51,249 bases of DNA from Promethearchaeota archaeon Loki_b31 (GCA_005222975.1 NJBI01000021.1:1-51249); one strand, 5' to 3'; positions 3,795-17,948 are shown, counted from the stretch's first letter. The notes: a model not told the origin generated them from the sequence alone. Program-made: numbers and translations.

Positions 3795-4748
3795 ATAAAA
3801 GTACTCCTATTTGGCCCTGGTGGTGCGGGTAAAACTTCATTAATGCGGACTACTTGTTTAGGTTATAATTTCATGAAAGTGCTTAATCTGAAACCTACAA
3901 AAGGAATCTCGAGGGAAAATTTTATATTTAGGGGAATAATGGAACTTTCCATCTGGGATTTAGGAGGCCAAGAACTTTATATGGAAAGACATTTCTCGGA
4001 AAATAAGCGAGAGCTTGTATTTTCTGAAGTATCAGCTGCAGTTTTCATGGTTGATTCGGCAGCAGAAGAACCAAAACTAGAAGATACTTTTGGTAAATTC
4101 TTGAAATACCTTTTTGAATTTAGTCCTGAAGTAGGAAATGTATATGTCTTAATAAATAAAACTGATCTTCAAGAATCAAAGGAAGATGACATTTATGAAC
4201 TGTTAATTAAAGATCTTACAGATGATTTAAAAAGTAAAATTGCTTTTACACCCGTATCAGTAAAAGAGGGAAGTGCTCAACATCGATTGATCGAAATACT
4301 CGATTTCAAAATTCAACAGAACACATTAGCTTTACAAAGACTTGGGAAAATACGCCATTTATTAGACCAATTGAAGATCAATACACATTCAGAATTTCTT
4401 TTGTTTAACCAACCAGATGGTTTATTAATAGCATCCACAATAGGAAAATTTGAAAGTCCAAGTTTACAATTTATCAAATTCGAGATTGGTAGCTTAGATT
4501 CTAATATTTATCAAATTTTTTCAAAGATCATGGAACTTTCAGATTCTTCGATTTCTCCTTTAGAATTATCAACTGTTATATATGAGAGCGAACATAACTA
4601 TATTTTAGTGAAGGAAGTTAGCAATGGAACGGTACTGATGGTTGTTACAAAAGAGAAAACTATCGGAACTTTTAATGCGGTGATGAACGACTTAAACGGC
4701 GAAGATTTCCAAAATTTGAAAAAATTCCTTAGTAGGGACGACTTTTAA
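3795..4748 (+). CDS. Rag/Gtr-like small GTPase with C-terminal roadblock domain (start moved upstream to ATA 3795)
   Basis: P-loop GPGGAGKTS lies in frame upstream of the track ATG (3843); G2 KPT, G3 WDLGGQ, G4 NKTD; C-terminal EFLLFNQPDGLLIAST...YILVKEVSNGTVLMVVT roadblock-like. Confidence 0.85.
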   Translation: MKVLLFGPGGAGKTSLMRTTCLGYNFMKVLNLKPTKGISRENFIFRGIMELSIWDLGGQELYMERHFSENKRELVFSEVSAAVFMVDSAAEEPKLEDTFGKFLKYLFEFSPEVGNVYVLINKTDLQESKEDDIYELLIKDLTDDLKSKIAFTPVSVKEGSAQHRLIEILDFKIQQNTLALQRLGKIRHLLDQLKINTHSEFLLFNQPDGLLIASTIGKFESPSLQFIKFEIGSLDSNIYQIFSKIMELSDSSISPLELSTVIYESEHNYILVKEVSNGTVLMVVTKEKTIGTFNAVMNDLNGEDFQNLKKFLSRDDF

Positions 4749-5769
4749 TTAATTCTAAATCAATTTTATTAGAAAATATTGTTCTATTAGAATGTTCTTC
4801 AATAATGGAAAACAAATAATTGTTTGTATTTTTAATTACAGGCGTTATAAACAATAATTCTTCTTCGGGAAGGCATTTTTCAACTTTTTCGTTTAATACC
4901 TCTTTTTCAAAAAATTCTTTAATGTAAGTAATTCGGATGATGAGATCGTTGAATTCTTTTTTACTGTTATTCTTTACTAAAACTTCTATTTCCTGAAAAT
5001 TGTTAATAATATTTATATTCGTTATTTTAAATTGATCTTTTATTCCTAATTTTTGTTGAACAACTCTATCATAATCAAATAATCGAATTTTAGAAAACGA
5101 TTCATTTTGAGCGTTTATAACAATATGGTCAATATCGATTCCTTTAAATGTTAAATAAGAAATTGCTTTTTGCAATTTGAAAGAGGTCGCATCAGTTTGT
5201 TTAATTACCGATGAAAAATATTCCTCACAAGTAAGGTTAATTATAGCTTTTATTTCTTCTTTTATTTGATCTCCTTTTTTTATCTTATTGATTAATTTCT
5301 CCGTTTTAATAACTTCTAGTTTCGCAATTTCTGACTCGATTACATGATAAAGCGTATTTTCAAATTTGTCGATTAATTTTTTCGTTAATAAATTTAATAC
5401 TTCTCCCCCAAAAATATCCAAATCTGTTGGTAACACAAGTATCAACACAACTATTTCACCCAATTTTTGAAAAGACCCTGCTCTTCTTTTAACCCTCTTA
5501 GATTCAATAATAAATTTCTTCGCAAAATACATTTGATTACAGTATTCTAAATCGATTCGGTTAATTGTAGTTTTTTCTTTAAGTTCTAAAAACCAAATTG
5601 GATGGTATCTTATAAGACGCATTTTTCCCGAATCATCATCTAGCGACTTTTCTGGACAAATAAGAAGTGGGACATGGCCTATAGTCTCATCAAAATAAAA
5701 CAAAAGAGCCTCACACAATTCACTAAATGGACACTCTTTATTGGTGTTATTTGAGAGATTTTCTTTCAA
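4729..5769 (-). CDS. Longin/uDENN-like N-terminal domain protein with C-terminal beta-sandwich
   Basis: N-terminal ALLFYFDETIGHVPLLICP resembles longin/uDENN beta1-beta2; C-terminal IEVLVKNNSKKEFNDLIIRITY is Ig-like; TTG start after GAGG. Confidence 0.5.
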   Translation of the reverse strand: MKENLSNNTNKECPFSELCEALLFYFDETIGHVPLLICPEKSLDDDSGKMRLIRYHPIWFLELKEKTTINRIDLEYCNQMYFAKKFIIESKRVKRRAGSFQKLGEIVVLILVLPTDLDIFGGEVLNLLTKKLIDKFENTLYHVIESEIAKLEVIKTEKLINKIKKGDQIKEEIKAIINLTCEEYFSSVIKQTDATSFKLQKAISYLTFKGIDIDHIVINAQNESFSKIRLFDYDRVVQQKLGIKDQFKITNINIINNFQEIEVLVKNNSKKEFNDLIIRITYIKEFFEKEVLNEKVEKCLPEEELLFITPVIKNTNNYLFSIIEEHSNRTIFSNKIDLELIKSRPY

Positions 5770-5827: not shown

Positions 5828-7132
5828 TTAATGAGAAGCGCACGATATGCAAGGATCAAATGCTCTTATCATTATTTGAATTTTTTCTTTGACAGAATCG
5901 ATATCTTCTTTTTCATATAGCTTTTTAGCATATTCAGTGATCATTTTGTTAAGAATAGGCAAATTTATTTCGGTTGCAATGAAAAGTTTTACTTGATCAA
6001 CGATTTTAGCTTTATTTAAATGATAATGATGCATTAGTATACCTCTTGGTGCTTCGATAACCCCTATTCCATTTGATTTTTTTATTGAGTTTAGTTGTTT
6101 AAGTTTTGTTTTACTTTTTAGTGAAGTAGTATTTAATATTTCAACACTTTTTTGAATTTCGTAATAACTTTCAATTAATTGTAAAAAGTTTAAAAATAAT
6201 AAATTGCTTTTCCATTTTTTTCCAAAATTGCTTATATATTTGGATATTTTATCTATCCCATAATTTTGATTTAACTTATAGCGCGCTATTGGTCCTGTTA
6301 AAATCTCATTTTTCGAATTTGACTTAAATGTAATCCCATAAAGATTAGAGTCTTTATCAAGATATTTTGAATAATTTTTCGCTTGAAAATCGTCGTAAGT
6401 TGTTTCATTTTGTTCAATTCTGAGGTCTCCTTCATACCTATCAAACCCCATATTATTTTTTAAGCCGAAATATATAGGATTAGAAAGATTAAATTCTGTA
6501 GGAGGATCAAAAGCAGAAAATAAATCTATAAAATTTTCAATTATAGTTTCTATGTAATAAATTCCCTTTTTTAGATATTTCTCCGTAAAAATTAAACTTT
6601 TTCGAGTAGGACTAAATATTAATCCTCCAGGAATCGGAGTAATTGGATGTAGCGCCCTTCCTCCTATTAACTTATTTATTTCTGAACCAATTTTTATTAA
6701 ATTAAAGACATTTGTCGTTAAATGAGGATTGTAATTAATTAAATTATAAGGTTCGTTAATTGTAGTATTAATTTTAAATATTTTTAATAAATCTGGAAAG
6801 GATTGGAAAAAATAATGCATAATGTGCGATTTTGTTAATTCTCCGGATAATAAAAATCTTCTGAGCAAAATTGATTGGTGTGATGGTTCTATTCCGTATA
6901 TATCTTCTATTGCTTTGCAACTTGCAATTGTTTGAGATGCGTAGCACAGTCCACAAATTCTAGATACTATTTTTGGAATATCTAATAACTTTTTGCCTAC
7001 TAATATATTTTCAAATCCTCTAAATACTGAAAAGTTCAATTCAGTTTGATAAATTTCATCATTTTTTAAATAAATGATTAAGTTTCCACAACCTTCTACC
7101 CTTGTGCATGCTTCTACAACTTTATCCATCAA
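5828..7132 (-). CDS. mvhA: Group 3-type [NiFe]-hydrogenase large subunit (MvhA/HydA-like), no C-terminal extension
   Basis: TRVEG, RGFE, RICGLC, HPITPIPGG, GPIAR, EAPRG, terminal RAFDPCISCASH-stop. Confidence 0.85.
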   Translation of the reverse strand: MMDKVVEACTRVEGCGNLIIYLKNDEIYQTELNFSVFRGFENILVGKKLLDIPKIVSRICGLCYASQTIASCKAIEDIYGIEPSHQSILLRRFLLSGELTKSHIMHYFFQSFPDLLKIFKINTTINEPYNLINYNPHLTTNVFNLIKIGSEINKLIGGRALHPITPIPGGLIFSPTRKSLIFTEKYLKKGIYYIETIIENFIDLFSAFDPPTEFNLSNPIYFGLKNNMGFDRYEGDLRIEQNETTYDDFQAKNYSKYLDKDSNLYGITFKSNSKNEILTGPIARYKLNQNYGIDKISKYISNFGKKWKSNLLFLNFLQLIESYYEIQKSVEILNTTSLKSKTKLKQLNSIKKSNGIGVIEAPRGILMHHYHLNKAKIVDQVKLFIATEINLPILNKMITEYAKKLYEKEDIDSVKEKIQIMIRAFDPCISCASH

Positions 7133-7893
7133 ACCTTCCCTCCTACATGTGATTTTGAGAACCTATAATATATCCCTTTATATTTTCTTAAATCTTTAGA
7201 AAGGTTAAAAAGGCTTAAGAAATTGATTAAATTCGAGGTAAACCCCTTTGAAACAGGACCTAAACATCCTTCACAGGGTAATCCTTGATTTATACAGAGA
7301 TGATCGCAGCCCTCTCGAGTAACAGGACCTAAACATAAAATCCCATCGTTCAAAAAACACGATAAATTTTCTTCCGGAAAACGAATTTCATCGTTTCTTG
7401 GAACAATCTTTTCTATTGTTAATGGTAAATCTAATTTTGCGTGGTTTTTTAAAGGACAAGTAGAACACATATTTTTTAAGCTTAGCTTGATTTTTTTGTT
7501 CTCAACTAACCTCAATAAACAATTTCCTAAAAGTATGGACGGAGGAGGACATCCAGGTATAATACCATCAACTTCTACAAACTTTGAAATAGGATACGAT
7601 TCTTTTTTATTTGAGAGACTAAGGATCCCCCCAAATGCTGAGCATGTACCTAATGCATATAGTTTTTTTGCATTTTTTCGTATTTCTTGAAGATATTTAA
7701 TTTGATTCTTTTCGGATACACACCCCTCTATTAGCGCTACATCGCATTCTTTGATCTCTAAATTGTCAGATATAAATGGAAAATATTCGATCTTCGTTCT
7801 CTCAAGAAATTGTGGAAATATATCTAGCGATATTAATGCTGATATACATCCAGTACAAGATGTCAAAGAGGCAATTAAAAATTTAAGCCTCAC
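7129..7893 (-). CDS. mvhG: [NiFe]-hydrogenase small subunit (MvhG-like)
   Basis: SCTGC, EG, GTCSAFGG, PGCPP, CSTCP, CLGPVTREGC..C....LPCEGCLGP; 4-nt overlap with large subunit gene. Confidence 0.85.
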   Translation of the reverse strand: MRLKFLIASLTSCTGCISALISLDIFPQFLERTKIEYFPFISDNLEIKECDVALIEGCVSEKNQIKYLQEIRKNAKKLYALGTCSAFGGILSLSNKKESYPISKFVEVDGIIPGCPPPSILLGNCLLRLVENKKIKLSLKNMCSTCPLKNHAKLDLPLTIEKIVPRNDEIRFPEENLSCFLNDGILCLGPVTREGCDHLCINQGLPCEGCLGPVSKGFTSNLINFLSLFNLSKDLRKYKGIYYRFSKSHVGGKV

Positions 7894-10429
7894 TTTTAAT
7901 ATCCTCCTTTAATAAATTATAGAATTTAGTAGAGATGTCAGCAAAAATCTGTCCTTCTACTCCATTTACACCCATCACTATTATCCGTCTGCTTAACTTT
8001 GGTCCTAGAATCTTTTTTAAAAGCCCAACTCTTTTTTTTAATTTTTCAATCCCATCAATATATCTACAAGAATCCTTTCTACAGCCGATAATCATAACTC
8101 CATCAAACCCCATTTCAAAAGATTTATTAATGAATTCAGTATCAATACGTCCTGTACAAGGAACAGAGATGATAAAAATATTAGGCTGATATAACAATTT
8201 TTTTAATCCTGCATTGTCAGCGGCAGCGTAACCGCACGATTGGCAACAAAAAGCGATGATTTTTGGTTTTTTATTGAATTTTGAGAAAATTTCGATCGTT
8301 TTTAAAATCTTTTCTGATGTATTTATATTCATTTCAATGGCATTAGTAGGACAAACACTAACACACATACCACAAGCTTTACATTTAAACTTATCAACAG
8401 TAATTTTTTCGGAGTTTATGCTTATTGCATTGTAAGGGCAAAAATTAACGCAGAGGCTACACAATCCACATTTTTCTTCATTAATCTCTATTCCAGTATA
8501 TTCTGTTATTAAATAATCATTTGAAAGAAGTGATATTACTTTTAACGCTATGTTATTGGTGGTTGCAATAGTTGAGTGATAATTTAATGGCCCAAATATT
8601 GTTCCAACACCATAAATACCAGAAGCTAAAGTTTCTTCACTCATAAAACCGTAATCATTTAAAGTGAAGTCCATAATCTTTCTTAGAGATTTCAGATCCT
8701 TATTTGGAATTAATTTAAGATTTAAAACAATCAAATCACTCTGAAACTCAATAGAATCCGCAATTACATAGTTAATATTCTCTCTTGTCTCAATTAATAC
8801 TTTATTAGCGTAAAGAAATCTAGGATGAGTAGATTTTAGTATTATCTCGTCTTTTTCTTTTAGTTTACTTAAATCGTAAAAAACATTAACTTCACAATCA
8901 GGGTTCTTTACTTTAATAACATCCATATACTTTAGGGATAAAATATCCGAATATTCACATAGATAGTTTGAAGGTCCTACTTCTTGAATAATTGATATTG
9001 TTTTCACTGGTTTCCCATCAGACAATTTTACGATCTTTCCATCAGTTAGGCCTTCTGAACATAAAATTCGTTCAAATTCTGCCGAAGTTATGACATTATT
9101 TCGTGGATTATAATTATATTCTTTTAAATTTGAATAAAGATCTGAACCAATAGCTATAATTTTTGCGCCTACTTTAATTCTTAATTCCTTAGGCTTTTCT
9201 ATTAAATTTATTGCTTTATTTACACAAGCGCGTTCACACACTCCACATTCAAGGCAGTTATTAATATCTTCATCTTCAATAACTGGGACATAAGGATAAC
9301 AGTATTGAAAAGGAAAGTGAATTATTTTTCTATTTGTTAATCCAAATTCATATATATTAACTTTCTCTCGAGCACACACATCAATACATTGCTTACAACC
9401 TGTGCATTTAGTTTCATCAATATAGCGAGGTTTTTTAATTAAACCTATAGTAAAATTGCCAACTTCTCCCGATACACTTATTATTTCCGTATTTGTCAAG
9501 ATCTCGATTTTTTTTTCTTTTACAATTTCCCCAATTAATTCAGAGATGAAACAAGCAGAACAATCTCCCATTTTAGAAACCTTTTGCCATCTTGCTACTT
9601 TTCCACCTAATGTAGGAGACTTTTCAATTAAGTAACACTTGATACCTGCCCTTGATAAGTTTAACGCCATGTTCATACCCGCAATCCCTCCTCCAAGAAT
9701 AGCGCAACTTTTTTCAACTTCAACTCTTTTTATCTTAATTGGTTTTTGAAGACTTACTCGATTAACTGAGGCTTCTATAAGTAATTGCGCTTTTTTCAGA
9801 GTTAAAAGACTATCAATGTGCTTTTTACTTGAATAATGTACCCAACAACATTGTTCTCTTATATTTGCAATCTCAATATTTGCATTATCAATTATATTTT
9901 GAAAAAGACGTTCAAATATATGTTGATGTGTTTTAGGAGAACAAGCAGCGATAACAATTTTATTTACGAAGTTATCAGTAATCCAATTATTAATTTTATC
10001 TTGATTTTTTTCTTGACATAAATTATCAAGGATTTTAACTGAGACTACATTATTTATTTTACTTACATAGTTTTCTAAGGAGTTAATGTTAAGGACATTT
10101 GAAACTTCTGTATTACAATTACAAATAATAACACCTATTCTATTTATTTCGCTCCCTTTTGATTTTAAATATTCTATTTCCTCTCCGGATAAAATTCTTT
10201 TGTTTAATCCTAATATCCTTAAAATTCTTTTACCGTCATCAGTTAAATAATATGATTTTTTATCTTTACTTACTAAATTATTAAGCTTTTTTAAATGAAA
10301 ATTTAATTGTCCTGTTTGTTTTATACCTAACTTCACCATTAATTCGGTATATGGGATAAAACCCTCTTCTTCGAGTATGTATAAGAGTTTTCTTCTCATC
10401 GGATGGGCTAAAATTGAATAAATATCCAT
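7883..10429 (-). CDS. Fusion of ArsR-like winged HTH + HdrA-like flavoprotein + MvhD
   Basis: N-term LAHPMRRKLL...QLNFHLKKL...YYLTDDG (wHTH); HdrA motifs AACSPKTH, ANIREQCCWVH, GGGIAG, DCSAC, two ferredoxin pairs; MvhD motifs AFCCQSCGYAAAD, VPCTGRID, DGVMIIGC...C. Confidence 0.9.
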   Translation of the reverse strand: MDIYSILAHPMRRKLLYILEEEGFIPYTELMVKLGIKQTGQLNFHLKKLNNLVSKDKKSYYLTDDGKRILRILGLNKRILSGEEIEYLKSKGSEINRIGVIICNCNTEVSNVLNINSLENYVSKINNVVSVKILDNLCQEKNQDKINNWITDNFVNKIVIAACSPKTHQHIFERLFQNIIDNANIEIANIREQCCWVHYSSKKHIDSLLTLKKAQLLIEASVNRVSLQKPIKIKRVEVEKSCAILGGGIAGMNMALNLSRAGIKCYLIEKSPTLGGKVARWQKVSKMGDCSACFISELIGEIVKEKKIEILTNTEIISVSGEVGNFTIGLIKKPRYIDETKCTGCKQCIDVCAREKVNIYEFGLTNRKIIHFPFQYCYPYVPVIEDEDINNCLECGVCERACVNKAINLIEKPKELRIKVGAKIIAIGSDLYSNLKEYNYNPRNNVITSAEFERILCSEGLTDGKIVKLSDGKPVKTISIIQEVGPSNYLCEYSDILSLKYMDVIKVKNPDCEVNVFYDLSKLKEKDEIILKSTHPRFLYANKVLIETRENINYVIADSIEFQSDLIVLNLKLIPNKDLKSLRKIMDFTLNDYGFMSEETLASGIYGVGTIFGPLNYHSTIATTNNIALKVISLLSNDYLITEYTGIEINEEKCGLCSLCVNFCPYNAISINSEKITVDKFKCKACGMCVSVCPTNAIEMNINTSEKILKTIEIFSKFNKKPKIIAFCCQSCGYAAADNAGLKKLLYQPNIFIISVPCTGRIDTEFINKSFEMGFDGVMIIGCRKDSCRYIDGIEKLKKRVGLLKKILGPKLSRRIIVMGVNGVEGQIFADISTKFYNLLKEDIKSEA

Positions 10430-10468: not shown

Positions 10469-10536
10469 TTGTTAAAAACTTTTTTTTGACAAATTATTTT
10501 TTCTTCATGATAATATATGTTGTAAAAATATATAAA
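10469..10536 (-). promoter_or_regulatory. Putative TATA box (10529-10536) and downstream imperfect palindrome TTGTTAA-N10-TTGACAA (10469-10492) for the wHTH-HdrA operon
   Basis: Minus-strand TTTATATA about 100 nt upstream of ATG 10429; inverted heptamer pair lies between the TATA box and the start. Confidence 0.5.
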
Positions 10537-10608: not shown

Positions 10609-10696
10609 TTGTTTAGATAAAAATTTTGACAATATTCCTTATCAATATGTTAAAAAATTATCTTGTCAAATTCTTTATATTTTAAGCTTATGACAA
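10609..10696 (+). promoter_or_regulatory. Promoter with repeated TTGACAA/TT(G/A)TCAA heptamers around TATA box 10674-10680
   Basis: Heptamers at 10609, 10626, 10639, 10663, 10690; TTTATAT follows TTGTCAAATTC. Confidence 0.55.
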
Positions 10697-10751
10697 TTCA
10701 ATTAGGTAAATACTTTTTTAAAAAGTTGAAATAAAAGAGGTGTATTATTAT

Positions 10752-11369
10752 ATGGAAGTTTTGGAATTGAAACCAGTAAAAAATAAAAAAATAATAGCGT
10801 ATATGTCCTCAAAAGAAAATGGCAGGTATTTTCAAAATAAAGATACATCAAAATTAACCGATTTTCTTAAAAAGAAAGATGTTAATTTTGTTACCGTAGA
10901 TTTTCAAGTAGATATGAAGGAATTTAAGAAAACACCTTTTGCACAAACATTAGATAAACTAGGAATACCTTATATTCAAGTAGATATTCCAGATTATGCA
11001 ATGGGATATCTTTACGAAGAAATTGTTGAAAAACAAGAACTTCAAAATGAATTATTTGAAGAATACGACAATATGAGCGATAAAGAATCTTTCAAAGGAC
11101 AAAGTCTAAAAAATTGGATCGACATGTTAAGCGAAGAAATTCAAGAAAAAGAGATTTTTTTAAGCTTAAAGCTAAGGCCACAGTGGATCGTAAAAAAAAT
11201 GTTAGATTTTGCAAATCATTTTGAAAATGAAGTTGTTTCTTTTGTACATTTTGTTCAAGAGGATATTTGCGAGGATATTTGCCCTCAAGTCGTAGCAAAT
11301 CTAAGAGATTTGGGAGTAAAAGTAATATCCTATACTAAAAAACATACAATTCAAAATATTATATTTTAA
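10752..11369 (+). CDS. Hypothetical protein, paralog of the 11394 and 15672 ORFs
   Basis: SD GAGGTG 10737-10742 favours ATG 10752; N-term MEVLELKPVK shared with next ORF; central helical segment shared with the 15672 ORF. Confidence 0.75.
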   Translation: MEVLELKPVKNKKIIAYMSSKENGRYFQNKDTSKLTDFLKKKDVNFVTVDFQVDMKEFKKTPFAQTLDKLGIPYIQVDIPDYAMGYLYEEIVEKQELQNELFEEYDNMSDKESFKGQSLKNWIDMLSEEIQEKEIFLSLKLRPQWIVKKMLDFANHFENEVVSFVHFVQEDICEDICPQVVANLRDLGVKVISYTKKHTIQNIIF

Positions 11370-11393
11370 ATAAAAAAAAGGAGTGAGAAAAAA

Positions 11394-12122
11394 ATGCCAG
11401 AAGTATTAGAATTAAAACCATTAAAAGATAAGCATCTAAAGCTTATCATGGTAGAAAGTGAGTTTCCAATAGATTGGTGGTTTGAAGTTCCTAAAGAAAA
11501 AAAGGAAGATTTGCTATGGTCTTTACATCTTATTAGCAAAGAATATCTTCAGCTCATTGATAATTTAATAGACAAATATTCACCTGATTTTGCTTTAGAA
11601 GAAAAACCTAATTTTTGGGATGACCCGTTAAACCCTAACGATCCTCTAAAAACCTTATTCAAAAAGAGGGGAATTCGGTTTAAACATGCTGATATCTCTG
11701 AAAATGCGGAATTTTATCTTTCTGCTGCATTGGATGAACACAGAAATATGCTACAAACACTTGAAGAGCGAATCAAAGAGATAATTACAGAAAAAGGTGG
11801 TGTTCCTTCCGAGGATGAACTTTTCCAACAATTAGTTATATGGAAGGAATATCTCAAAAAAGATTATGACTCACAAGAAGATGAAATTCGATATAAAGTT
11901 AGAGAGGCTTGGATGATGATGAATACTTTAAACCTTGCCAAGGAGATTAAAGGGAAAAAATTAAAGGGGTTATTTATTTGCGATTTAAGACACTTTGAAG
12001 GCCTTGATAAGTTAGCAAACGATTTAGGCATTGAAACAGAACAGATTAAAATCAAAAGAACTATTAAAACCGCAGAAATCGAAAAAGAGTATGAAGAAGT
12101 AGAAGTTGAGATATCTAAATAA
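11394..12122 (+). CDS. Hypothetical protein, possibly TraB/ChaN(EreA)-superfamily fold
   Basis: Intact 242-aa ORF with GGAG SD; PDFALEE, REAWM and GLFICDLRHFEGL resemble TraB-type motifs (weak). Confidence 0.6.
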   Translation: MPEVLELKPLKDKHLKLIMVESEFPIDWWFEVPKEKKEDLLWSLHLISKEYLQLIDNLIDKYSPDFALEEKPNFWDDPLNPNDPLKTLFKKRGIRFKHADISENAEFYLSAALDEHRNMLQTLEERIKEIITEKGGVPSEDELFQQLVIWKEYLKKDYDSQEDEIRYKVREAWMMMNTLNLAKEIKGKKLKGLFICDLRHFEGLDKLANDLGIETEQIKIKRTIKTAEIEKEYEEVEVEISK

Positions 12123-12175
12123 TTTTTTTTTAGTTATAATTTCTTTGAATTTTATAATTTAATAAATGATGTGAG

Positions 12176-13189
12176 ATGAGAAAAATTACTCAAAATAATG
12201 AAATTGGAAGTAAAATTGAAAGTATTCTTGGGAAAAAATCAATTATAGAATTAACGCCAATTAAAATAAAGAAAAAGGATACTTCAGATAAGATTTGTTA
12301 TTTTTTTGACACGGATGATAACGCTTCTCCGTTTGACATTAACATGGCTTACGACGCTGGTTTTGATATTGTTGTGCCAATAAGTAGAATGACTGCGGAT
12401 CAAGTTCCTAAACTTGTCCAGGATGCTATATTTTCACGTAAACCTAAAGCACCTACAGCATTTTTTATTGGGGGATCTAATGTAAAGGAAGGGGAAAAAA
12501 TCGCTAAGAAAGTTATTGAATCTTTAGTACATCCATTTGAATGTCCCGTAATAATAGATCCAAGGGGTTCTCATACTACTGCTTCTGCAGTTGTAGCTAA
12601 GACTTTATACGATGCTAAAAATATACATAAAATTAGTGATTTAAAAGGAGAAAAAGTCGTAATCTATGGGGCGGGTCCAGTTGCCAGAATTGCTGCCATA
12701 TTAGCAGCAAAAGAAGGGTTGAATACATTTTTAGTTGAAACTTGGGATAAATCGAACGAAGAATTTATAAAAAATCTTGCTAAAGAAGTAACCGAAGAAG
12801 CTGGGGAGAATGCAACCGAGATTAAAGGGATTTTTGCTCCTGAAAAAGAACAAAGATATGATGTTGCTAAAGATGCGCTTATTATCTGGTCTCTAGCTGC
12901 TGCTGGTGTTGAAATTTTATCAAGCGATCTAATGGAAAGGTTAGAAGGTAAGAAAATTGTAGTAGATATCAATTTAGTTCCCCCTTATGGAATCGAAGGA
13001 ATAAGACCAAAACACGATAATGAAGAAATATATCCAGGAATTTTTGGAATCGGAGCATTAGCATTAGGTCGTTTAAAAGCAAATTCGGAGGGAGAAATAT
13101 TAAAAGAAGCAACAAAAACTAAAGGTACAAAGGTATTTGATTATAAATATGCATTCGAAGTTGCTAAAAAATTGTTATCTAAGATGTAA
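12176..13189 (+). CDS. mtdB: NAD(P)-dependent methylene-H4MPT dehydrogenase (MtdA/MtdB family)
   Basis: SPFDINMAYDAGFD, QDAIFSR, FIGG, DPRGSHTTA, GAGPVAR, DINLVPPYGIEGI, GIGALALG. Confidence 0.85.
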   Translation: MRKITQNNEIGSKIESILGKKSIIELTPIKIKKKDTSDKICYFFDTDDNASPFDINMAYDAGFDIVVPISRMTADQVPKLVQDAIFSRKPKAPTAFFIGGSNVKEGEKIAKKVIESLVHPFECPVIIDPRGSHTTASAVVAKTLYDAKNIHKISDLKGEKVVIYGAGPVARIAAILAAKEGLNTFLVETWDKSNEEFIKNLAKEVTEEAGENATEIKGIFAPEKEQRYDVAKDALIIWSLAAAGVEILSSDLMERLEGKKIVVDINLVPPYGIEGIRPKHDNEEIYPGIFGIGALALGRLKANSEGEILKEATKTKGTKVFDYKYAFEVAKKLLSKM

Positions 13190-15534: not shown

Positions 15535-15605
15535 TTGTCAATGAAATTTTTTGAAAAATAAAATTATTAATTTATCAAAAATTTTTCTTATCAAATTCTT
15601 TAAAT
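15535..15605 (+). promoter_or_regulatory. Promoter with the same heptamer architecture as 10609-10680
   Basis: TTGTCAA 15535, TTGAAAA 15551, TTATCAA 15572 and 15588, then ATTC and TTTAAAT (15599-15605). Confidence 0.5.
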
Positions 15606-15671
15606 TTATCGCTTAAGAGTATTTAATTAGAAGTTATAAAAAAATTAAATAAAAATTAAAAGGTGTACATA

Positions 15672-15923
15672 ATGGTGATAAGTTTGGTTAATGAAGTAAA
15701 TAGTTTTGAAGAAAAAATCGTTCTATCTTCTAAAAGTGAATTTATATCTGCATTTGCTCGAGGTTACTTTGAAGCGGAGATAATTGAAAAAGAAACACAA
15801 TTAAATGAATATTTAAATGCTTATAATGCTATTCGTGAGAAAGACTCATTTAATAGACAGTATATAGAAACTTTAATATATTTATTAAAATCTGAAATAA
15901 TGGGAATCCAAAAAATGTTTTAA
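15672..15923 (+). CDS. Small helical protein, truncated paralog of the 10752 ORF
   Basis: ARGYFEAEIIEKETQLNEYLNAYNAIREKDSF aligns with AMGYLYEEIVEKQELQNELFEEYDNMSDKESF; SD AGGTG 15661-15665. Confidence 0.75.
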   Translation: MVISLVNEVNSFEEKIVLSSKSEFISAFARGYFEAEIIEKETQLNEYLNAYNAIREKDSFNRQYIETLIYLLKSEIMGIQKMF

Positions 15924-16019: not shown

Positions 16020-16868
16020 TTAAGCTTCTTTTTCGTGGAGTTTTCTCTTGGTTAAAAGATGTTGCTTAGCATGATGAGGCGTTCTCAATACTGTATCGTT
16101 AGATTTTTCTATTTCTCTGGCTTGTGTGCATAATTCAGCAGCTGTTTTCATCATTTCGTGAGATGCAGCTAATAAAGGCATATATTCGGCTCTATCTTTT
16201 AAAACAAAGCACGCTCTTCCCGTAATCTTAGAAACTGAAGCTGCTAATTCGAAAGCTGCAATAGCTTTAGCTTGGGCGTAAGGATTTGAAAAACCTGCTG
16301 CCTCTGTAGCGTTAGTGGCTTTAATCTCAATCTGAGGTAAAATAGGAGCCTTCCCTTCTAACATATCCATTATAACTTTATTTAATTCGTTAGTTATTAT
16401 ATTAAAAACACCAGTAATCGCAAGAACTTTTAATAGATCTGCATTGAAACAACTCATCTCGACAGCGTCTAGAAATGGACGCCTTGCTCCAATCATTGAG
16501 TCACAGCCTACTATTATATATCCCATGTTTTTTTCTTTAAATTCTTCGATAGCCTTTTTTGCTGGAGCATCAGAGATTACAATCGTAGGAATAATTCCTG
16601 CTAATTCTCTTGCTGCTTTCGGTCCTTTTAACGCCGCATTTGGGCTGGACATTAAGATTAATTCCGGTTCAAATTCCAATAATTTTTTCATTGTTTCTAC
16701 GCATTCCTCTGAGGGGTTCATCTTCGCTCCCGAGGTAACTTCTCGCACAATTATATTAGTAGATTCTGCCCTTTCATCCATTAAAAAAGCAAGTAATAAC
16801 GAAGAACCAATTGTCCCGTTTTTTTGAATACCAATCTTTAAAACTTTTTCTTCACTCATTTTTGACAA
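16020..16868 (-). CDS. mtd: F420-dependent methylene-H4MPT dehydrogenase
   Basis: DERA, TSGAKM, SPNAALKGP, DSMIGARRPFLD..EM..FNADLLKVLA, FSNPYAQAKA, AREIEKSNDTVLRTPH. Confidence 0.93.
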   Translation of the reverse strand: MSKMSEEKVLKIGIQKNGTIGSSLLLAFLMDERAESTNIIVREVTSGAKMNPSEECVETMKKLLEFEPELILMSSPNAALKGPKAARELAGIIPTIVISDAPAKKAIEEFKEKNMGYIIVGCDSMIGARRPFLDAVEMSCFNADLLKVLAITGVFNIITNELNKVIMDMLEGKAPILPQIEIKATNATEAAGFSNPYAQAKAIAAFELAASVSKITGRACFVLKDRAEYMPLLAASHEMMKTAAELCTQAREIEKSNDTVLRTPHHAKQHLLTKRKLHEKEA

Positions 16869-17036: not shown

Positions 17037-17948
17037 ATGGAAATAAATGGAGTAGAAATTGAAGATACTTTCTGTGAAGCGTTTGGAGCTGTTTTTACTA
17101 GAATTTTAGTAACTGCCATAAATGAAAAATGGGCGAAAATTGTTGCTCAAATCGCAACTGGTTATGGGACTTCAACAATCCACTGCGATTCAGAAGCCGG
17201 TATAGATGTATTTGTTTCTGCTGAAAAAACACCCGATAAACGACCTGGAGTTGTATTGATGTTTTTTAAGACTAAAAAAGATAAAATGGACGGTGTTTTA
17301 TTGAATAGGATGGGTCAATGTGTATTAACATGCCCAACAACTGCTTGTTTTGACGCATTAAATGGTTCTCTTGTTCCAGAGAAAGAATTTGAAATAAAAA
17401 CAGGATATAAGCTAAAATTTTTCGGTGATAAATTTGAAGAAAAAATAGAAGGAGTCTATCCTTTTGAAGCGTGGAAAATTCCCGTTATGGACGGTGAATT
17501 TATCGTTCAAAGCACATTTAAAGTTGGAAAAGGAATCGCGGGAGGAAATTTCTTAATTTATGGTGAAACTCAAGAGGCAGCCTTAGAAGCTGCAGAAAAA
17601 GCAATTGATGCAATAAAAGATTTAGAAAATATAATAGCTCCTTTTCCTGGTGGGATCGCACGGTCTGGTTCAAAAGTAGGATCACAATATAGTTTTTTAA
17701 ATGCTTCAACGAACGATCCTCTTTGTCCAACACTGCGAGGAAAAATTGAGAATTCTTTACTCGGAGAGAAAGATAATTACGTGTACGAAGTAATCCTTGA
17801 CGGTGCTAATGAAGAAGTTATAAAAGAAGCTTTGAAGTTAGGGATTAAAGCGGCTGTTCAAGTCCCGGGTGTTTCAAAAATCAGTGCAGGGAATTATGGC
17901 GGTAAGCTAGGAAAATTTCAATATAGATTATATGATATTTTAGCTTAA
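17037..17948 (+). CDS. ftr: Formylmethanofuran--H4MPT formyltransferase
   Basis: MEINGVEIEDTFCEAF, TPDKRPG, RMGQCVLTCPTT, AGGNF, PFPGGIARSGSKVGS, ISAGNYGGKLG. Confidence 0.96.
   Translation: MEINGVEIEDTFCEAFGAVFTRILVTAINEKWAKIVAQIATGYGTSTIHCDSEAGIDVFVSAEKTPDKRPGVVLMFFKTKKDKMDGVLLNRMGQCVLTCPTTACFDALNGSLVPEKEFEIKTGYKLKFFGDKFEEKIEGVYPFEAWKIPVMDGEFIVQSTFKVGKGIAGGNFLIYGETQEAALEAAEKAIDAIKDLENIIAPFPGGIARSGSKVGSQYSFLNASTNDPLCPTLRGKIENSLLGEKDNYVYEVILDGANEEVIKEALKLGIKAAVQVPGVSKISAGNYGGKLGKFQYRLYDILA

Follow-up and report, generated by a model that had tools for sequence, protein, structure and literature searches.

The cassette described here lies at positions 5828 to 10429 of a 51,249-nucleotide stretch of DNA from Promethearchaeota archaeon Loki_b31 (GCA_005222975.1, NJBI01000021.1:1-51249), hereafter the window, and consists of three open reading frames (ORFs) on the minus strand, which overlap head to tail by 11 and 4 nt. 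The first of these (7883-10429) encodes an 848-aa protein in which a winged helix-turn-helix (wHTH) domain is fused to HdrA and MvhD. It is followed by the gene for an MvhG-like NiFe-hydrogenase small subunit of 254 aa (7129-7893; NF045875 VhuG, E 9e-34; aligned with 5ODC_E) and by that for an MvhA-like large subunit of 434 aa (5828-7132), which has a probable ATG start at 7129 and ends at the His of DPCxxCxxH. An earlier note, made from the sequence alone, had described an ArsR-like domain joined to HdrA and MvhD in genes overlapping those of the hydrogenase subunits, and had proposed that the complex is a transcription factor sensing H2 or redox state. Our ORF and profile searches confirm both the coordinates and the architecture given there.

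The fusion protein is made of three parts, all encoded on the minus strand. The N-terminal part (aa 1-95, including a low-confidence linker; 10145-10429) is the ArsR/SmtB-like wHTH domain, of which aa 2-72 match the DUF7347 winged helix above the cut-off (PF24038, E 5e-10 to 1.5e-11). Residues 97-842 are HdrA2-like (NF040770, E 1.5e-165), HdrA2 being the type in which HdrA is fused to MvhD, although the scores of the curated HdrA types were not reached (552 bits against a cut-off of 1100 for NF040770, and 353 against 1400 for NF041778). Alignment with HdrA chains delimits a core of aa 97-715 (8285-10141), comprising an N-terminal iron-sulphur (FeS) domain, a FAD/thioredoxin-reductase-like domain with an inserted ferredoxin domain, and a C-terminal ferredoxin domain. 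The MvhD/FlpD [2Fe-2S] domain occupies aa 721-848 (7883-8269), with the match to PF02662 covering aa 724-841 (E 2e-32; 112 bits against a cut-off of 22.3) and the MvhD chains of the PDB matching at E 1e-20.

The earlier note had advised a search for this architecture and its gene order across Asgard genomes, and had regarded a fusion confined to this assembly as fatal to its proposal. We found the full-length fusion in 59 Asgard species-level genomes (one genome per species). It also recurs in over 120 protein clusters, which have identities of 63-95% and lengths of about 849 aa and almost all of which carry PF24038. The clusters come from metagenome-assembled genomes (MAGs) labelled as Loki- or Promethearchaeota, Thor-, Hod-, Hermod- and Odinarchaeota, and wherever the locus reaches that far, the fusion gene is directly followed by those of the small and large subunits. 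That an error of assembly or gene calling, or a chance read-through, had joined a regulator gene to hdrA has therefore next to no probability: the same 848-849-aa frame recurs in independent species genomes from many samples, and this reading is refuted. The main family collapses to one representative when clustered at 50% identity. The wHTH-HdrA-MvhD build and the cassette recur in another four clusters, whose identity is 36-40%, and one of these comes from Bathyarchaeia MAGs. An orthologue of the large subunit is present in about 79 of the 121 genomes of this class with a completeness of 85% or more, and the cassette is absent from two single-contig genomes (4.4 and 6.0 Mb) of the sister family. 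Note that one contig (DATKTW010000111.1), which matches the window at 93% identity over the whole neighbourhood, is recorded as 'Candidatus Nanopelagicaceae bacterium' and is probably a mis-binned Asgard contig. As the earlier note had supposed, no account of this architecture was found in the literature on HdrA with helix-turn-helix or winged-helix domains and on DUF7347, subscription journals being outside the coverage. Published Asgard work speaks of MvhADG-HdrABC or of group 3c hydrogenases and leaves the fusion unmentioned; Imachi et al. gave strain MK-D1 one NiFe hydrogenase, listed as 'MvhADG-HdrABC'.

By sequence and by predicted fold, the N-terminal domain is a regulator-type wHTH. 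In support of this, and in addition to the PF24038 match, the family profile matches an archaeal putative ArsR repressor (PDB 1Y0U, E 1e-6) with the NxHLxxL helix aligned; weaker matches were to the ArsR-type HTH_20 (PF12840, below cut-off) and to HTH_24/45. The AlphaFold2 (AF2) model of the domain has a predicted local distance difference test (pLDDT) value of 87.7 and the topology a1-a2-a3-a4-b1-b2-a5. Its top Foldseek matches are all DNA-binding regulators (YodB, CadC, NolR-DNA at 30% identity, MexR/MarR and the DNA-binding domain of CggR), with TM-scores of 0.6-0.7 and weak E-values, 1e-3 to 1e-2. The mean column conservation of the domain, 0.84, equals that of the catalytic domains; the recognition helix is almost invariant, and T39, G40, N43, H45 and L46, together with Y60, L62 and G66 in the wing, are invariant. 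In the full-length model residues 82-93 have a pLDDT below 50, so that the domain looks tethered to the body of the protein and not packed on it. Prediction of a complex of two copies (aa 1-100) gave a median of 0.38, against a mark of 0.42, a value that argues neither for nor against a dimer. A search for a free-standing close homologue returned only contig-end fragments, and the nearest stand-alone wHTH proteins, found in this genome and in genome G101, differ from it in their recognition helix and possess a membrane domain.

The cassette is transcribed away from an operon on the plus strand (10740-13189), which encodes two paralogous Asgard-specific proteins and an MtdA/B-like methylene-tetrahydromethanopterin (H4MPT) dehydrogenase, and which shares palindromes and co-occurs with the cassette. 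When the divergent intergenic region (320-390 bp) was aligned for 15 loci whose proteins are 62-87% identical, conserved blocks were seen that contain the inverted repeat TTGAYAA-N6-TTRTCAA, an extra half-site, and a second site by the predicted TATA box of the cassette. In the window the distal palindrome, TTGATAAGGAATATTGTCAA (10626-10645), is an exact match and the sole exact copy in the 3.5-Mb genome. The proximal one (10507-10526) lies beside a predicted TATA box (10529-10536) and has 2 mismatches here, and at most 1 in several orthologous loci. The intergenic alignment also revealed a conserved half-site, TTGACAA (10663-10669), adjoining the TATA box predicted for the divergent operon, and a further half-site at 10487-10493.

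Counting the hexamer TTGTCA in upstream regions proved uninformative, and footprinting and a palindrome test were used instead. With at most 1 mismatch, TTGAYAA-N6-TTRTCAW occurs 64 times in 50 diverse loci (590 kb), against 2 times for the reversed control, and the spacer of N6 gives 58 matches, against 0-3 for the spacers from N2 to N12. In 37 of the 47 loci a site lies at most 400 bp upstream of where the operon starts. This applies to 12 of the 15 loci in which an FrhB/FdhB-like gene has been inserted before the fusion and to 25 of the 32 without it; where the gene is inserted, two sites precede it, at about -93 and -260. The palindrome thus tracks the promoter of the operon and not a fixed distance from hdrA. 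Palindromes also front the divergent operon where this has been relocated, and they front the gene of an 83-aa paralogue of the operon's 209-aa protein. In the window this last gene (15551-15923, plus strand, with its upstream region) has a degenerate copy of the site with 2 mismatches; the copy has at most 1 mismatch in loci L021, L034, L036, L037, L065 and L072 and in four near-identical relatives of L021. The upstream region of one Bathyarchaeia-type locus (L082) has TGATAA/TGACAA half-sites and no N6 palindrome. That a conserved operator-like palindrome accompanies the cassette promoter is new here.

In lineages labelled Hod, Hermod or Thor, and in many Loki lineages (L017-L020, L039-L078), the inserted FrhB/FdhB-like gene stands directly upstream of the fusion, behind the palindromes and beside a cluster of a 1036-aa double HdrA, FlpD and FrhB. 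Its orthologue in this genome, 63% identical, lies within another Hdr cluster (C90:10935-12035).

Does the fused wHTH bind this palindrome? Winged helices are common as protein-interaction modules in Asgard and eukaryotic proteins, and the domain could instead be structural, a protein-docking module or a non-specific nucleoid tether, with a different transcription factor binding the site. There is a precedent in BamF, an MvhD-type adaptor in an HdrA-like system that likewise bears a wHTH: its wHTH forms a protein interface, contacting BamI in the class II benzoyl-CoA reductase, so that a wHTH in a system of the HdrA type can be purely structural (bioRxiv 10.64898/2026.04.10.717634). The BamF domain is internal, however, whereas the cassette has its wHTH at the N-terminus of the HdrA part, attached through a flexible linker. 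Palindromes also persist where the cassette does not. G101, which is 99% complete and in which two queries found no cassette, has two 1-mismatch palindromes upstream of a homologue of the 209-aa gene, which in that genome comes after a selenocysteine-containing HdrA; another factor may therefore bind the site. Against a docking role stand the sequence match to ArsR-type repressors, including the xxNxHLxxL recognition-helix signature, the structural neighbours, all of them DNA-binding regulators, and the low-confidence linker that leaves the domain off the body in the model. Moreover, the palindrome stays with the cassette promoter when the gene order changes, and no other conserved DNA-binding gene was listed in one Hodarchaeota locus or near the cassette in the window. 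Taken together, we consider a structural, docking or tethering role with a separate palindrome-binding factor unlikely, if still to be reckoned with.

The HdrA core aligns with the solved chains 8RVU, 5ODC and 7BKB at E 1e-105 to 1e-89. Compared with 8RVU, CVGSRD..YCSRVCC has become EVGPSN..YLCEYSD, YMDIRAFGK has become FYDLSKLK, and GPKDI has become GPLNY, letter for letter as the earlier note had read them. At 8945-8992 (minus strand), IQEVGPSNYLCEYSD replaces CxGxRD..CSxxCC, where deeper relatives retain C..C..CC; the [4Fe-4S] cluster of the thioredoxin-reductase domain (HA4) is the sole HdrA cluster lost, together with neighbouring flavin-side residues. The note had called the core selectively eroded. 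The HA4 motif and the flavin-side residues alone are replaced, and the replacement states (IQEVGPS, FYDLSKLK, GPL) are themselves conserved throughout the family and are not decaying. The features said to be kept are indeed kept in the 39 fusion sequences compared. The FAD-binding GxGxxG motif, GGGIAG, is invariant, as are C729, C732, C758, C783 and C788 of MvhD. The cysteines of the N-terminal cluster (C103, C105, C138, C163) with the CxxC pair C290/C293, the eight of the inserted ferredoxin domain (C342-C352, C392-C402) and the eight of the C-terminal ferredoxin domain (C654-C664, C683-C693) are invariant or nearly so.

In methanogens HA4 passes the high-potential electron from FAD to HdrC/HdrB (PMC9012536, PMC13580544). 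Since HA4 feeds these subunits, its loss fits the missing hdrBC in the operon. No gene for HdrB/D (CCG-domain) is present on the whole contig, in accord with the note's remark that none lay nearby, and none adjoins the cassette in three Asgard loci or two deep-clade loci; about 25 CCG-domain genes and at least 10 further HdrA paralogues lie elsewhere in the genome. The four HA4 cysteines and GPK are retained in deep relatives that have the wHTH, among them deep Loki relatives and the Bathyarchaeia clade. From these alignments, the wHTH fusion arose first and the loss of HA4 came later. Note that in-frame TGA codons, which are consistent with selenocysteine, occur in several HdrA paralogues and in MvhD-like ORFs of this genome (contigs C17, C71, C90, C61 and C23) and of G101 (L088, 1699-3735); HdrA with selenocysteine has already been described from Asgard archaea (PMC11291895, PMC11227280).

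Judged from its sequence, the hydrogenase looks competent. The NiFe motifs RICGLC, RGFE, APRG and DPCxxCxxH of the large subunit are conserved in 28 orthologues. In 27 of these the protein stops at the His, while MvhA (5ODC_F) runs 25 residues further; a protease-processed C-terminal extension is thus missing. VEGCG in the large subunit of the window is a quirk of this lineage, the family consensus being VEGHG. The small subunit retains the cluster cysteines of MvhG in the alignment with 5ODC_E, and is about 35 residues shorter. The best solved relatives of the large subunit are 7T2R_D (NiFe-HydABCSL) and MvhA, and the best family matches are to group 3.

This genome has one other NiFe hydrogenase, in a cluster (C87:117000-127446) of genes for HypD, HypE, an extended small subunit of 440 aa and a large subunit of 438 aa, followed by HdrC-like and HdrB-like genes and then by a FAD oxidoreductase gene truncated where the contig ends. 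Coupling to Hdr is likelier for this hydrogenase than for the cassette. Five cassette-positive genomes, 93-99% complete, were searched for other hydrogenases, and no second group 1-3 NiFe, no group 4 (PF00346) and no FeFe (PF02906) hydrogenase was detected.

These results bear on whether the cassette is a dedicated one-component sensor, which would report H2 or redox state to a wHTH controlling the divergent operon and the cassette itself, without metabolic turnover. The lost HA4 branch and the lack of hdrBC in the operon would suit such a role, as would a large subunit ending like those of regulatory hydrogenases. The second hydrogenase of this genome, with its HdrBC-like partners and Hyp genes, could carry the metabolism, and the counts of operator-like sites given above speak for a sensor as they do for a regulated enzyme. 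However, the wHTH fusion predates the loss of HA4, and in Bathyarchaeia and deep Loki lineages it is found on an HdrA that still has HA4. Both ferredoxin domains, the exit path for electrons, are invariant and would be superfluous in a sensor, no other hydrogenase of any class was detected in the five near-complete genomes, and the 62-74% identity between Asgard lineages is what a core enzyme typically shows. A dedicated sensor is accordingly rather improbable. For three of these reasons, the intact ferredoxin exit path, the age of the fusion and the sole hydrogenase of the five genomes, an enzyme that is also a regulator is likelier. The proposal of the earlier note is therefore retained in part. 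Its fusion, its wHTH and its loss of the HdrBC branch stand, and an operator-like site has been added to them; its idea that an Mvh-Hdr module had been repurposed from bifurcation to relaying a signal is not supported, because the fusion is older than the loss of HA4 and because the electron chain and the NiFe site have stayed under strong constraint.

We propose instead that the cassette encodes a working soluble NiFe-hydrogenase/flavoprotein complex which also regulates its own expression, as a trigger enzyme similar to PutA, with DNA binding as a predicted property; this is the explanation we favour, with a probability a little under one half. Electrons would move reversibly from H2 to the NiFe site, through the three FeS clusters of the MvhG-like subunit and the [2Fe-2S] cluster of MvhD to FAD, and on through HA3, HA5 and HA6, the end point being ferredoxin or another partner and not a heterodisulfide. 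Dimers of HdrA would set two wHTH domains on the palindrome, and the proximal site, which abuts the TATA box, would be in a repressor-like position. The wHTH would be tethered to HdrA's N-terminal domain. In the methanogen complexes, where HA4 is the exit to HdrBC, this domain is a mobile arm, swinging back and forth between two states that are linked to redox (PMC9012536, PMC13580544, PMC13518236), and by analogy H2 or redox status would change the affinity for DNA. We regard it as possible, and state it more tentatively, that H2 reduces the flavin and FeS chain of HdrA, that the N-terminal arm moves, and that the fused wHTH is thereby switched on or off palindromic operators, whether or not the complex also serves as an enzyme.

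Several points weigh against a regulated enzyme of this kind, beyond the example of BamF and the palindromes of the cassette-less G101. Binding of the wHTH to the palindrome or to other DNA is a prediction, and ferredoxin is a candidate for the electron acceptor of the enzyme. The flavin-side residues are altered, making FAD binding by the fusion putative. The large subunit lacks the C-terminal extension, as in sensory hydrogenases, and in distant loci it has changed more quickly, with 43-57% identity against 62-74% for the fusion protein.

With MvhAGD-HdrABC, the H2:CoB-CoM heterodisulfide and ferredoxin reductase of methanogens, the cassette shares the subunit families and the order of cofactors, and the HdrA2 of Methanosarcina is likewise a fusion of HdrA and MvhD. 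Unlike these systems, the cassette adds a wHTH, has lost HA4 and flavin-side residues, and has no hdrBC in its operon; from MvhAGD it differs further in the large subunit without extension and in the shorter small subunit. With PutA and other trigger enzymes (BirA, NadR) it has in common a DNA-binding domain at the N-terminus of a flavoenzyme, in one chain, and an operator-like site in a divergent promoter region, with the wHTH as the putative binder. In PutA the DNA-binding domain is a ribbon-helix-helix fold, and its switch is proposed to lie in the flavin's redox state. The cassette differs from it in DNA-binding fold, enzyme family and signal, and the likeness shown is one of architecture and operator-like sites. 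HoxBC/HupUV, which act with the kinase HoxJ/HupT and the regulator HoxA/HupR, also have a large subunit without C-terminal extension, and a coupling to transcription is possible in the cassette as well. The cassette, however, is by its best matches group 3-like and not group 2b, carries its DNA-binding domain on the electron-transfer subunit, and has no kinase or response regulator in its conserved module in the loci and the window neighbourhood examined; an AsnC-type response-regulator gene lies downstream of it in two Thor/Hermod loci only. Finally, Rex and the ArsR/SmtB-family sensors (YodB, CadC, NolR) have the same wHTH fold and recognition-helix signature and would be expected, as dimers, on inverted repeats. 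Their sensing module is a small ligand-binding or thiol site; in the cassette an FeS flavoprotein of 750 aa, connected to a hydrogenase, would take its place. The cassette would join two known kinds of system, the trigger enzymes or one-component regulators and the Mvh-Hdr modules.

The two Asgard-specific proteins of the divergent operon, of 209 aa (10740-11369) and 242 aa (11394-12122), form with the 83-aa protein (15672-15923) a family of three members. For both proteins of the operon, ESM Atlas look-ups returned nothing but clusters of hypothetical proteins from Asgard archaea. The first gene of the operon is present in about 78 of the 79 cassette-positive genomes and in 2-3 of about 42 cassette-negative ones, a count that overstates independence because the genomes are related. 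The members of this family may be targets of the regulon or unrecognised partners of the hydrogenase complex. Within 8 kb of the cassette lie the genes for the MtdA/B-like (Mpt_N) dehydrogenase (12176-13189), an F420-dependent Mtd (16020-16868) and Ftr (17037-17948), which belong to the H4MPT branch of the Wood-Ljungdahl pathway.

On the other side of the cassette, a 346-aa ORF with no Pfam match (4729-5769, minus strand) follows the large-subunit gene at about 50-60 bp in about half of the related loci, at 44-57% identity; it is convergent with a Gtr1/RagA-like GTPase gene (3843-4748, plus strand). A 906-aa ORF (267-2987) matches Pfam only in a winged-helix HTH_45 repeat region, and its synteny with the cassette does not extend to distant loci.

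H2 metabolism is central to ideas on the physiology of Asgard archaea and on the origin of eukaryotes, and we know of nothing on H2 or redox sensing in these organisms. About two thirds of the near-complete genomes that were surveyed for this class contain the cassette. Databases annotate it as 'hydrogenase iron-sulfur subunit' and papers list 'MvhADG-HdrABC' for Asgard archaea, yet it is without the HdrBC branch and has a regulator domain, and reconstructions that count it as a heterodisulfide-reducing, bifurcating Mvh-Hdr complex would need revisiting. One protein domain and one 20-bp site would make a simple system in which binding can be tested. Should the domain bind the palindrome, the fusion would be the first flavoprotein linked to a hydrogenase to act directly as a transcription factor, and Asgard archaea and Bathyarchaeia would have a direct, kinase-free link from H2 to transcription, governing a small regulon beside Wood-Ljungdahl genes.

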